Part shown: one piece after another, positions 3,008 to 5,527 of the stretch | Layout: the number at the start of each line of letters is the position of its first letter | Numbering within the stretch: the first letter of the stretch is position 1 | Made by a program: the position numbers and the translations under genes | The notes under the pieces: model-generated | The model's input: only the letters and a program-made list of their open reading frames with translations | Told to the model about the DNA's origin: nothing | The model's database searches: none | Assembly (NCBI GenBank): GCA_965223545.1 | Contig: OZ245006.1 | Span: forward strand, 640,001-704,000 | Direction: 5' to 3' | Origin: Planctomycetota bacterium | GTDB lineage: Bacteria > Planctomycetota > UBA1135 > UBA2386 | DNA length: 64,000 nucleotides

Positions 3008-4069
3008 ATGGTCCGCCGCCTTCGCATCGCCGTCGTCGCCGACGGCCCCACCGAGCTTCCCGCGCTGCTGGGCCGCGCTCGTGCGCGCGCTCAGATCCGG
3101 CTGTTCCGCGACCTCTACGCCGAGGCGGAAGCCCTGCGCCGCTACCAACCCGCGGTGGTGTTCGTCGTGCTCGGCGAGATGGAACCGCAGGACGAGGGCG
3201 CGCTGCGCATGCTGCGCGCGTGGATGCCGGACACCGGCCTCGTCCTCGCCGGTGAGAGCCCGGATCTCGGTCTGCAGGCCATCGCGACACCGTTGCACGC
3301 CGCGGTCTTGCCCGCAGAGCCCAGCGTCGAACAACTCGACACCGCGCTGCAGGACGCCGAGACCAACGCCAACGGCGACGTGACCGCCAGCCTGATCGAT
3401 CTGGTGGGCGGTCTCTCCGACGAGATCAACAACCCGTTGATGGTCACCGCCGGCTACGTGCAGCTGCTCGAGAGCCGGCTGGCCGAGCTCGACCAAGATC
3501 ACGCGGCGCTGGCCGATCTGGTGCAGCAGATCAAGGCCGGGGTCGCCCGCGTGAGCGCGACGATGGACAAGGTCGCACTGCTGACGCGCGCCGCTGAAGC
3601 GGCCGCCCCGGAGGTCGTCGTCGACCTCGCGCCGCTGGTCGCCTCCGCGCTCGAGCAGCGGCAGGCCACAGCCGGCGATGAGCCCGATTTGCGGCTCGCC
3701 ACGCCGCTGCCGGAAAGCGTCGCCGTCCTCGGCCACGAAGCCCTGCTCCAGGCCATGGTCGGGCAGCTTTGCGCCTGCGGTGTCGGGCTCTTGGCCCCCG
3801 GCGGAATCGCGCACGTGGCACTGCTCCGCGAGGGGGTCGAGTGCGTGCTGGAGCTGCGGCTGTCGTCGACTACGGTCCCCAGTTGGCGCCTCGCCCGCAC
3901 CTTCGAGCCGTACTACCTGAGCCGCTTGCTGCGCGGCACGGCGGAGGGGCTCGGTCTGTTCCTGGTCCAGCTCGTGGCCCACGGCCACGGTGGACACGCG
4001 CGGGCCGAGTGGGCCACCGACGGCGGTGCCGCACTTCGCGTCACCCTACCGGCGGCAAAAACGGATTAG
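3008..4069 (+). CDS. Degenerate hybrid histidine kinase (pseudo-receiver + HisKA + HATPase); likely pseudokinase
   Basis: H-box GLSDEINNPL (Asp in place of His), F-box FEPYY and G2 GLGL retained, no N-box Asn or DxGxG. Confidence 0.8.
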   Translation: MVRRLRIAVVADGPTELPALLGRARARAQIRLFRDLYAEAEALRRYQPAVVFVVLGEMEPQDEGALRMLRAWMPDTGLVLAGESPDLGLQAIATPLHAAVLPAEPSVEQLDTALQDAETNANGDVTASLIDLVGGLSDEINNPLMVTAGYVQLLESRLAELDQDHAALADLVQQIKAGVARVSATMDKVALLTRAAEAAAPEVVVDLAPLVASALEQRQATAGDEPDLRLATPLPESVAVLGHEALLQAMVGQLCACGVGLLAPGGIAHVALLREGVECVLELRLSSTTVPSWRLARTFEPYYLSRLLRGTAEGLGLFLVQLVAHGHGGHARAEWATDGGAALRVTLPAAKTD

Positions 4070-4135
4070 CCGGCGGCAGCGGCCGGTCGATACCTGCAGA
4101 ACGTCCATCTGTCTGGACGTGTTGGGCTCTTGCAC

Positions 4136-5527
4136 ATGGTCCGCGCACTCATCGCCGATCCCGATCCCCGCACGCAGGTCGAGCTGCAGCGGCTGTTCGC
4201 CGGCTCGGGCCTCGACGCGCTGGTCGCCGAGGATGGCACGGCCGCGCTGCGGCTGGCCCTCGAGGAGGACGTGGACGTCGTCATCGCCGAGCTCGGCCTG
4301 CCCGAGGTCGACGGCTTGACCCTGCTGCGCGAGCTCCGGCAACGGCGCCCGGAGACCGCGGTGATCCTGATCACCGCCTTCGGCTCGGTCGAGGACGCGG
4401 TCGACGCGATGCGCGCCGGCGCGTGCGACGTGCTGAGCAAGCCGTTCTCCGACGACCAGCTGCGCCTGTCGGTCGACCGCACGATCGACCGCCTCCACCT
4501 CGAACGCGAGAACCAGCAGCTGCGCTCGGCGCTGAACGACCGGCTGCGCCGGGAGGACCTGGTGACCGCCGAGCCGGGGATGCACGCCGTCCTCCGCACC
4601 GTCGAGGCGGCGGCCAACAGCCGCGCCACGGTGCTGCTCACCGGCGAGTCGGGCACCGGCAAGTCGCGCATCGCCCGCGCCATGCACAACCTGTCCGACC
4701 GCAGTCAGGGCCCGTTCGTCGAGGTCAACTGCGGCGCGCTGCCAGAGGCGCTGTTGGAGAGCGAGCTCTTCGGCCACCTCAAGGGCGCCTTCACCGGCGC
4801 CGACCGCGCCCGCGCCGGCAAGTTCGAGGCCGCCGACGGGGGCACGATCTTCCTGGACGAGATCGGTACCGCGACTCCGGGCCTGCAGGTCAAGTTGCTG
4901 CGCGTGCTGCAAGAACGCGTCATCGAGCGCGTCGGTGATGTGCACAGCACGCCGGTCGACGTGCGCGTCGTGCTCGCCACCAACGTGGACCTGAGCGCCG
5001 AAGTCGCGCGCGGGGCGTTCCGCGAGGACCTGTTCTACCGGATCAACGTGGTCAGCATCGAGATCCCGCCGCTGCGCGCCAGAAGGGCGGACATCCCGCT
5101 GCTGGCCGAGACCTTCCGCCAGCGCTTCGCGGCGGACAATCAGCGCACGGTCTCGGGTTTCAGTCCCGAGGCGATGCGCGCGCTGTGCGAGGCCAGCCTG
5201 CCCGGCAACGTGCGCCAACTCGAGAACATCGTCGAGCGCGCGGTGGTGCTGTGTCCGGGCCAGAGGATCGAGCGCTCGGATCTGCCGGCCGACATCAGCA
5301 CCGGCAGCCCCTCGATCGCAGCCGCTGCGGCCCCGCCCTCGCAGGCTGCGGGTCTCACCGACGACGCCCACTTGCTGCCGTTGAAGCAGGCGCTCGAGGG
5401 GCCGGAACGGACGATCATCGAGCGCGCCCTGGCCGCGCACGGCGGCAACCGCCAGCAGACGGCACGCAGCCTCGACATCAACCGCAGCACTCTTTTCAAC
5501 AAGATGCGCAAGTACGGACTGCTGTGA
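4136..5527 (+). CDS. NtrC-family sigma54-dependent response regulator with atypical receiver (Asp->Glu)
   Basis: Walker A GESGTGKS, ESELFGH, GAFTGA, FLDEIG, PGNVRQLEN, Fis-type HTH; receiver VVIAELGLP. Confidence 0.93.
   Translation: MVRALIADPDPRTQVELQRLFAGSGLDALVAEDGTAALRLALEEDVDVVIAELGLPEVDGLTLLRELRQRRPETAVILITAFGSVEDAVDAMRAGACDVLSKPFSDDQLRLSVDRTIDRLHLERENQQLRSALNDRLRREDLVTAEPGMHAVLRTVEAAANSRATVLLTGESGTGKSRIARAMHNLSDRSQGPFVEVNCGALPEALLESELFGHLKGAFTGADRARAGKFEAADGGTIFLDEIGTATPGLQVKLLRVLQERVIERVGDVHSTPVDVRVVLATNVDLSAEVARGAFREDLFYRINVVSIEIPPLRARRADIPLLAETFRQRFAADNQRTVSGFSPEAMRALCEASLPGNVRQLENIVERAVVLCPGQRIERSDLPADISTGSPSIAAAAAPPSQAAGLTDDAHLLPLKQALEGPERTIIERALAAHGGNRQQTARSLDINRSTLFNKMRKYGLL

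Follow-up and report, generated by a model that had tools for sequence, protein, structure and literature searches.

A putative phosphate-free regulatory pair of an uncultured planctomycete lineage: an Asp-bearing histidine pseudokinase beside a pseudo-receiver sigma54 activator with a predicted regulon

A 64,000-nucleotide stretch of the genome of a Planctomycetota bacterium (GenBank assembly GCA_965223545.1, contig OZ245006.1, positions 640,001 to 704,000 of the forward strand; hereafter the window, with positions counted from its first letter) carries, side by side, a gene for a histidine kinase-like protein with Asp in place of the phospho-acceptor His and a gene for a sigma54 activator with a degenerate receiver. 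The reading we favour, with a probability of roughly 0.45, is that the two form a phosphate-free pair: the activator would repress its own promoter and activate two small genes that depend on sigma54; by docking on the activator, the dead kinase would restrain it. The elements on which this reading is built are as follows.

3008..4069, plus strand: soluble pseudokinase of 353 residues, with a degenerate receiver, a HisKA domain and a degenerate HATPase domain (open reading frame, Pfam, AlphaFold, Foldseek)
3419..3421, plus strand: Asp138 codon (GAC) at the phospho-His position, within the H-box GLSDEINNPL
4136..5527, plus strand: sigma54 enhancer-binding protein of 463 residues, with a pseudo-receiver, an intact AAA+ domain, GAFTGA and a helix-turn-helix (HTH) (open reading frame, Pfam, alignments)
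4157..4168, plus strand: D8-P9-D10-P11, where Pro replaces the Mg-binding Asp (DD2) (ortholog alignment)
4289..4291, plus strand: Glu52 (GAG) at the acceptor site, lineage-specific (ortholog alignment)
4065..4092, plus strand: predicted sigma28-like promoter of the unit encoding the regulator and a TPR protein, with the -10 at 4087-4092 (motif conservation in upstream regions)
4103..4118, no strand: palindromic operator GTY-N10-RAC just 3' of the -10, a predicted autorepression site (motif counts)

The kinase has lost its catalytic residues. Just as the earlier note, made from the letters of the window, had described, the His is replaced by Asp, and inspection of the sequence found neither the N-box Asn nor the DxGxG of the G1 box; the N-terminal domain has no acidic pocket, no acceptor Asp and no Lys. 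The Pfam scores for HisKA (24.8 bits) and HATPase_c (20.3 bits) are both below cut-off, and the N-terminus gave no Pfam match to a receiver (REC) domain. The AlphaFold model recovers a receiver-type fold followed by DHp and CA domains (pLDDT 87.4), and its top Foldseek match is LvrB (8vc9, E 5.9e-16, 14% identity), so that the HisKA plus HATPase fold is present by model and structure match. Without the phospho-acceptor His, the N-box Asn and the G1 DxGxG the protein is not a canonical histidine kinase; with the catalytic residues gone and the gene under purifying selection, its sequence is that of a histidine pseudokinase of the DivL/PsmA kind.

The substitution is a stable feature of the gene. 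Asp occupies the His site in all 69 aligned orthologs (70 in total, one of them truncated), encoded by GAC in 64 and GAT in 5, and in 78 of the 79 representatives at 50% identity that score at least 130 bits. Conservation along the protein peaks in the first DHp helix (mean 0.72, compared with 0.43-0.47 in the N and G1 boxes), where residues N141, G149 and L153 are invariant in 63 orthologs. The lid region is likewise conserved, unlike the N and G1 boxes: the N-box Asn was found in one of the 63 orthologs and the G1 motif in none. Simple counting in GC-rich DNA, for 12 chosen close pairs of which none includes the source genome, put the ratio of nonsynonymous to synonymous substitution rates (dN/dS) of the kinase at 0.11-0.57 and that of the regulator at 0.03-0.40. 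The earlier claim of a conserved module under selection is thus borne out by the invariant Asp138 and by dN/dS below 1 in all 12 pairs.

The H-boxes of the kinases aligned within the source genome carry His in 19 of 20 cases, the Asp being confined to this pseudokinase, and a canonical pair in the same window served as an internal control.

41927..44034, minus strand: canonical kinase and NtrC-type regulator of another activator lineage, internal control (motif check)

This pair (43276-44034 and about 41927-43279, minus strand) retains His, N, G1, DDD, D, T and K, in agreement with the earlier description. Decay or a sequencing error was considered as an account of the lesions: the kinase falls below the Pfam cut-offs, and a copy in a sister family (genome G221) is a heavily eroded remnant. 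Against this, the frames are intact, the same substitution recurs in more than 80 genomes, dN/dS is below 1, and the contigs of the sequencing runs are identical, with no alternative letter at codon 3419 or 4289; run X2 spans both codons but may be the source sample, and a piece of run X7, from a separate study, spans 4289 and is unchanged. On the ortholog data we therefore exclude decay, which has next to no probability left.

The regulator is damaged in its receiver and intact elsewhere. The Glu at the acceptor site, the D-P-D-P pocket and the retained Thr80, Lys102, Walker A/B, GAFTG and HTH were all confirmed in the source copy, which lacks both DD2 and D. Its REC-AAA+-HTH architecture with Walker A/B and GAFTGA is that of a sigma54 enhancer-binding protein, and Walker A/B and GAFTG are present in every aligned row (69-70 of 71, the remainder being gaps). 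Among 79 orthologs (the row of G002, where the frame is broken near the start, was excluded) the acceptor site is Asp in 56, Glu in 21, Ala in one and Gly in one, and so acidic in 77; the Mg-binding position is Pro in 63, Ser in 8, Ala in 3, Gln in 2, Glu in 2 and Arg in one, and so non-acidic in 77. Position 80 is Ser in 43, Thr in 20 and Ala in 16; Lys102 is retained in 77, and D8 and D10 in 78 each. At least one of the residues DD1, DD2, D, T and K is missing in 78 of the 79, which makes the domain a pseudo-receiver in the sense of PMC12632262; all five are present only in G093. A phylum-wide scan with the receiver profile returned only generic receivers outside the family.

These counts change part of the earlier interpretation. 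The Thr is kept in the source copy; across orthologs it is not (16 of the 79 have Ala), and the Glu is confined to certain lineages. The loss of phosphoryl chemistry is common to both partners, as had been proposed; the Asp-to-Glu exchange is not, and the expected co-occurrence of His-to-Asp with Asp-to-Glu failed: Glu is found in 20 of the 67 genomes having both kinase and regulator, and a tree computed with the acceptor site left out shows 11 or more changes at it. A phosphomimetic Glu is for this reason not the general mechanism. Judging by the alignments, the lesion common to the regulators is the loss of the metal-binding Asp and not the Glu acceptor.

It is conceivable that in most lineages Asp52 of the regulator is still weakly phosphorylated, with the phosphate coming from another kinase or from a small-molecule donor, the Glu lineages being constitutive. 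The Asp in 56 of 79 orthologs, the conserved Lys, D8 and D10, and the complete site of G093 would suit this view, and according to a review (PMC12632262) phosphorylation can survive substitutions of DD, T or K. We regard it as quite improbable, given the non-acidic residue at the metal-binding position in 77 of 79, the Ala in place of Thr in 16, the repeated changes of the acceptor and its replacement by Ala or Gly in two genomes. The regulator is probably active without phosphate.

The regulator has a predicted promoter of its own, whose -35 overlaps the stop codon of the kinase gene and whose -35 consensus lies 17 nucleotides 5' of the -10. All 78 upstream regions contain the -10 motif, compared with 6-16 in shuffles. 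By resemblance to the FliA/WhiG consensus, this promoter and that of the glycosyltransferase operon described below are putatively of the sigma28 type. Mostly 7-11 nucleotides after the -10 lies the palindrome: its strict form, GTC-N10-GAC, was found in 58 of the 78 regions vs. 1.7 in shuffles, and the relaxed form, GTY-N10-RAC, in 66 of 78 vs. 4.6, often in two or three copies. No such motif occurs in the 200-nucleotide windows upstream of seven paralogous activators. The regulator is likely the protein that binds GTY-N10-RAC; we infer that it, rather than a paralog, is the binder from the position of the site over its own promoter.

A scan for tandem sites gave matches in 75 of 91 genomes, well over the reversed control, and two recurring loci emerged, here called targets A and B. 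Target A, which follows queG (G000, contig C1, about 6346155-6346343, minus strand; L274:5459-5647), encodes about 60 residues with two CxxC pairs; its protein has no Pfam family above cut-off and no Atlas match. It occurs in 241 of the order's 251 genomes and, by this distribution, appears to be a near-universal marker of the lineage. Sites were found at 35 of 35 own-family loci (35 of 38 were used, two having no promoter call and one short upstream DNA), with 92 sites vs. 3.4 in shuffles, clustered near -116 and -197 to -215 from the sigma54 promoter. In other families a promoter was called at 7 of 13 loci, all seven with sites; two loci of family f9 gave no promoter call. Target B (G000, contig C1, 4125857-4126282), present in 83 of 90 genomes, encodes a 142-residue protein without a Pfam family, and a sigma54 promoter with sites was found at 30 of 30 loci examined (70 sites vs. 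4.6 in shuffles). Other spacer lengths of the palindrome were near background at the targets.

The layout, with palindromes about 100-200 nucleotides 5' of -24/-12 promoters in a genome that encodes RpoN, is that of a sigma54 enhancer-binding protein. An operator 20-50 nucleotides from a sigma54 promoter was found in 12 of 91 genomes, like the reversed control. A wider pattern, scanned in 61 genomes, gave many matches at targets A and B; its other loci were unclustered, and inspection made no third recurring target evident. The operator-plus-promoter scan of the source genome alone was not above control spacers, and the predicted regulon therefore rests on cross-genome conservation. Within the region around target B (L275:365-5804; G000, contig C1, about 4122364-4127803), one flank of the target is taken by an ECF sigma factor gene followed by two unannotated genes; on the other flank lies an NtrC-like gene whose AAA+ domain is without GAFTGA and whose receiver is canonical here and unmatched in many relatives.

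Taken together, these data suggest how the favoured pair might work. The sigma28-like promoter would drive synthesis of the regulator and the TPR protein; the regulator, without phosphate, would repress this promoter and activate targets A and B. The pseudokinase would dock through its conserved helix on the receiver of the regulator and hold it down, Asp138 mimicking phospho-His and so fixing the state that binds an unphosphorylated receiver; its own pseudo-receiver would be the input. Precedents exist for both kinds of contact: in the cited account of DesK H188E, a phospho-His mimic is bound to an unphosphorylated receiver (PMC5231405), and DctD, as reported, is activated in the unphosphorylated form through protein contact (PMC11077940). 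That the pseudokinase binds the neighbouring regulator directly has, in our estimate, about an even chance. A brake is a more likely role for it than a trigger, because genomes in which no pseudokinase was found still have the regulator and the target sites.

A less probable assignment, though one that deserves attention, keeps the regulator and regulon as described and makes the pseudokinase a DivL-like sensor of, or a His-independent phosphatase for, another, phosphorylatable receiver. The phosphatase-type motif is mostly retained (E139 in 92% and N142 in 98% of the 63 orthologs), His is said in the cited review to be dispensable for HisKA phosphatase activity (PMC12632262), and DivL is described as binding phosphorylated DivK via its docking face with no catalysis (PMC4211667); the gene just after target B offers a candidate with a canonical receiver in the source genome. 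However, 18 of 91 Asp-bearing representatives have A, Q, T or M at position 139, the candidate's receiver is unmatched in most relatives where the gene was seen, and the kinase stands directly before the pseudo-receiver regulator in four families. This conserved order appears to be the ancestral state.

The neighbouring genes of the pair are listed below.

5617..9666, plus strand: TPR protein of 1349 residues with an N-terminal hydrophobic segment, after the regulator (24 vs. 312 bits, PrsT cut-off)
2397..2837, minus strand: small gene, 146 residues, head-to-head with the pseudokinase gene (profile)
2847..2873, minus strand: predicted sigma28-like promoter TCAAG-N16-CCGATA of the small gene and the glycosyltransferase operon (CCGATA conservation)
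1262..2269, minus strand: GT2 glycosyltransferase, conserved divergent neighbour of the kinase gene (Pfam, locus comparison)
3..1265, minus strand: second GT2, fused to a FemAB-like domain and running off the window (domain models, locus comparison)
9694..10602, minus strand: polysaccharide deacetylase of the XrtA system, convergent neighbour (TIGR03006 above cut-off; conserved position)

The product of the small gene starts with CxxC in the source copy and has a conserved core, RLVREFKG..LPG..GPG, and a C-terminal hydrophobic helix; it gave no Pfam family and only Atlas matches below 0.9. A profile match to it was found at 59 of 69 kinase loci of the order, and this membrane protein is a possible partner or anchor of the pseudokinase. 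The CCGATA of its promoter is present at 46 of 66 loci, vs. 1 on the opposite strand and 1-6 in shuffles; with the start codon 9 nucleotides after the -10, the gene is possibly leaderless. TCAAG and CCGATA at spacings of 16 and 17 are enriched genome-wide (6 and 9 vs. 0-2), and the source genome encodes two sigma factors of the FliA/WhiG family (TIGR02479 above cut-off) and two RpoN. Such promoters (TCAAG-N16/17-CCGATA) precede CheW-like, Hpt-like and pilus-ATPase-like genes, as named from sequence inspection; no match to flagellin was found in the source genome. The cassette of the GT2-FemAB fusion and the second GT2 is conserved into other planctomycete families. An exosortase gene adjoins the deacetylase gene in 8 related loci; neither an exosortase nor PEP-CTERM scored above cut-off in the source genome (91% complete). 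Elsewhere in the window, a DnaA-like protein at about 37615-38850 (minus strand) has weak scores to all DnaA domains and is possibly a divergent paralog.

The earlier note placed the adjacent exopolysaccharide (EPS) genes under the control of the regulator. No conserved sigma54 promoter was found before the kinase gene or the glycosyltransferase operon, which has the sigma28-like promoter instead. Since GTY-N10-RAC is not enriched before this operon (6 of 66 loci vs. 8), direct control of EPS genes is unsupported; any link to EPS would be indirect, via the co-transcribed TPR gene and the shared promoter type.

Several observations weigh against the proposed pair. Kinase and regulator were found in one fetched locus in 40 of 80 genomes and apart in the other 40, a count that partly reflects fragmented assemblies; in the single-contig genomes G027 and G060 they are truly far apart, and where the two have split, the kinase gene is accompanied by the GT2 genes and the regulator gene by the TPR gene. 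In the sister-family genomes G139 and G094 an ortholog of the regulator stands at the same locus without the pseudokinase, and the top matches inspected in a genome-wide kinase search of both were ordinary kinases. Helix 1, the usual docking face of response regulators, is variable among the regulator orthologs. The acidic acceptor and Lys102 are each retained in 77 of 79, and the site of G093 is complete. As for the regulon, the source genome encodes a paralogous activator whose recognition helix is similar and which could therefore recognize this palindrome too, the site counts include loci used for motif discovery (10 of the 35 for target A, 1 of the 30 for target B), and the related genomes counted are not independent samples. 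At the G094 locus, a gene with a formylglycine-enzyme-like domain (L366:6827-8188, minus strand) takes the place of the pseudokinase and the small gene.

Another account gives the pseudokinase a scaffolding or modulating role in the envelope-glycan machinery, where its partner would be the small membrane protein, the GT2 pair or the TPR protein; its position beside the regulator would then be a matter of history. In genomes where the pair has split, the pseudokinase is found with the GT2 genes. Its His-bearing orthologs in G578 and G595 have GT2 genes on one side and a large TPR-like gene on the other, and this regulator is missing there. Most pseudokinase loci also contain the small membrane gene, and the locus in G139 and G094 lacks both genes. 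PsmA, as described in PMC12963549, is a precedent for a structural pseudokinase. Yet surface conservation is highest on the helix that docks receivers, Asp138 never changes although the corresponding site of PsmA is variable, and the linkage to GT2 genes is explicable by the shared divergent promoter region; we consider this account unlikely.

A single query detected the kinase in 81 of the family's 90 other genomes; by profile it was found as a single copy in 82 of 88 own-family genomes, and also in 5 genomes of three sister families; at E 1e-30 the profile found none in 49 genomes of family f9 or 88 of family f10. No ortholog of the regulator was found in G136 (f9). In the kinase tree, which contains several long branches, a branch with 100/99 support separates the 15 Asp-bearing kinases tested from 19 others, which points to a single origin of the Asp-bearing kinases among His-bearing relatives. 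The nearest His-bearing kinases, those of G578 and G595, retain neither the N box nor the G1 box and occupy the same place in the locus, divergent from the GT2 pair and before the large TPR-like gene; the support for their sister position is only 81/81. In G292 the kinase, at the same locus place, retains His, N and G1. This suggests an order of loss from an active kinase through loss of the ATP site to the exchange of His for Asp. A canonical activator beside FemAB in G578 and G595 was considered and is not an ortholog of the regulator. In families f54 and f79 (L175-L183), the genes of His-bearing kinases with a degenerate N-terminal receiver form a tandem array with those of another kinase and of a canonical regulator; the N box is partly lost in some representatives, and one (P0094) has Glu at the His site.

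In a still more tentative generalization, a whole two-component system would have turned into a phosphate-free switch, in which a kinase locked by its invariant Asp into lasting mimicry of phospho-His grips a never-phosphorylated receiver and sigma54 control works by contact only, within a regulatory cascade that has a sigma28-like input and two small outputs, order-wide or family-wide. The apparent intermediates (an active kinase, His kept with the ATP site lost, His to Asp, and loss) seem to survive in relatives. How pseudo-receivers are switched on and off is named as the central unanswered question in a 2025 review, in which HisKA domains without His are given as rare, 0.9% (PMC12632262). 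The locus offers a candidate for a cognate pair in which both partners are dead, together with a predicted operator and two target promoters, and it gives a first predicted sigma54 regulon for this uncultured planctomycete lineage. Natural variants are at hand, with Asp, Glu, Ala or Gly at the acceptor, with or without the pseudokinase, and with His-bearing relatives. With operator, targets and variants predicted, the scheme is testable in vitro or in a heterologous sigma54 reporter, and culture of the host is not needed.

Among known systems, the Prs locus resembles this one in its gene order: PrsK, PrsR and PrsT are described as a kinase, a sigma54 activator and a TPR protein in tandem among exosortase-associated glycan genes, with the activator site 5' of sigma54 promoters of small scattered operons (PMC1569441, PMC9850573). 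Our locus shares the kinase-regulator-TPR order near exosortase and glycan genes; its targets are not recognizable as PEP-CTERM genes (no Pfam family; no PEP-CTERM above cut-off), and PrsK, as reported, is a membrane kinase, unlike the soluble pseudokinase. Membership in the PrsK, PrsR and PrsT families was rejected: there was no match to TIGR02916, and the scores for TIGR02915 (412 vs. 502.6) and TIGR02917 (24 vs. 312) are below cut-off. LvrB, a Rec-controlled kinase, has the same domain order as the pseudokinase and is its best structural match; its receiver is phosphorylated, according to the title of entry 8vc9 and to the portion of PMC13269768 cited here, whereas the pseudokinase has lost all phosphorylation chemistry.

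DivL of Caulobacter is another comparable protein. In the cited description (PMC4211667) it has a HisKA domain with the phospho-His replaced and the receiver-docking face conserved, and acts by binding; however, it carries Tyr at the site, has PAS domains and works on a normal phosphorylated receiver. The pseudokinase has Asp, no N or G1 boxes and a pseudo-receiver as its N-terminus, and the regulator next to it is a pseudo-receiver too. PsmA of Streptomyces has likewise lost the His and does not conserve the ATP motifs; as presented in PMC12963549, its H-site is variable (E, D, Q, V, Y), it is without the E-x-x-N/T motif and it acts on DivIVA, whereas in the pseudokinase the Asp is invariant, E-x-x-N/T is mostly kept and a transcription activator is linked. 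The regulator resembles pseudo-receivers of the FleQ, ChxR and CmrT type, in which DD2 is commonly lost, D replaced by Glu and T by Ala; in the part of the review used here (PMC12632262), 18 of 20 examples are orphans, CmrT stands beside an apparently normal kinase pair, and none is paired with a dead kinase. The open-access literature, in its main texts and without supplementary datasets, yielded neither a cognate pair of dead kinase and pseudo-receiver sigma54 activator nor a description of this system. In other words, pseudokinases and pseudo-receivers are each known, and what appears new is a doubly dead cognate pair with a sigma54 output and a predicted regulon.

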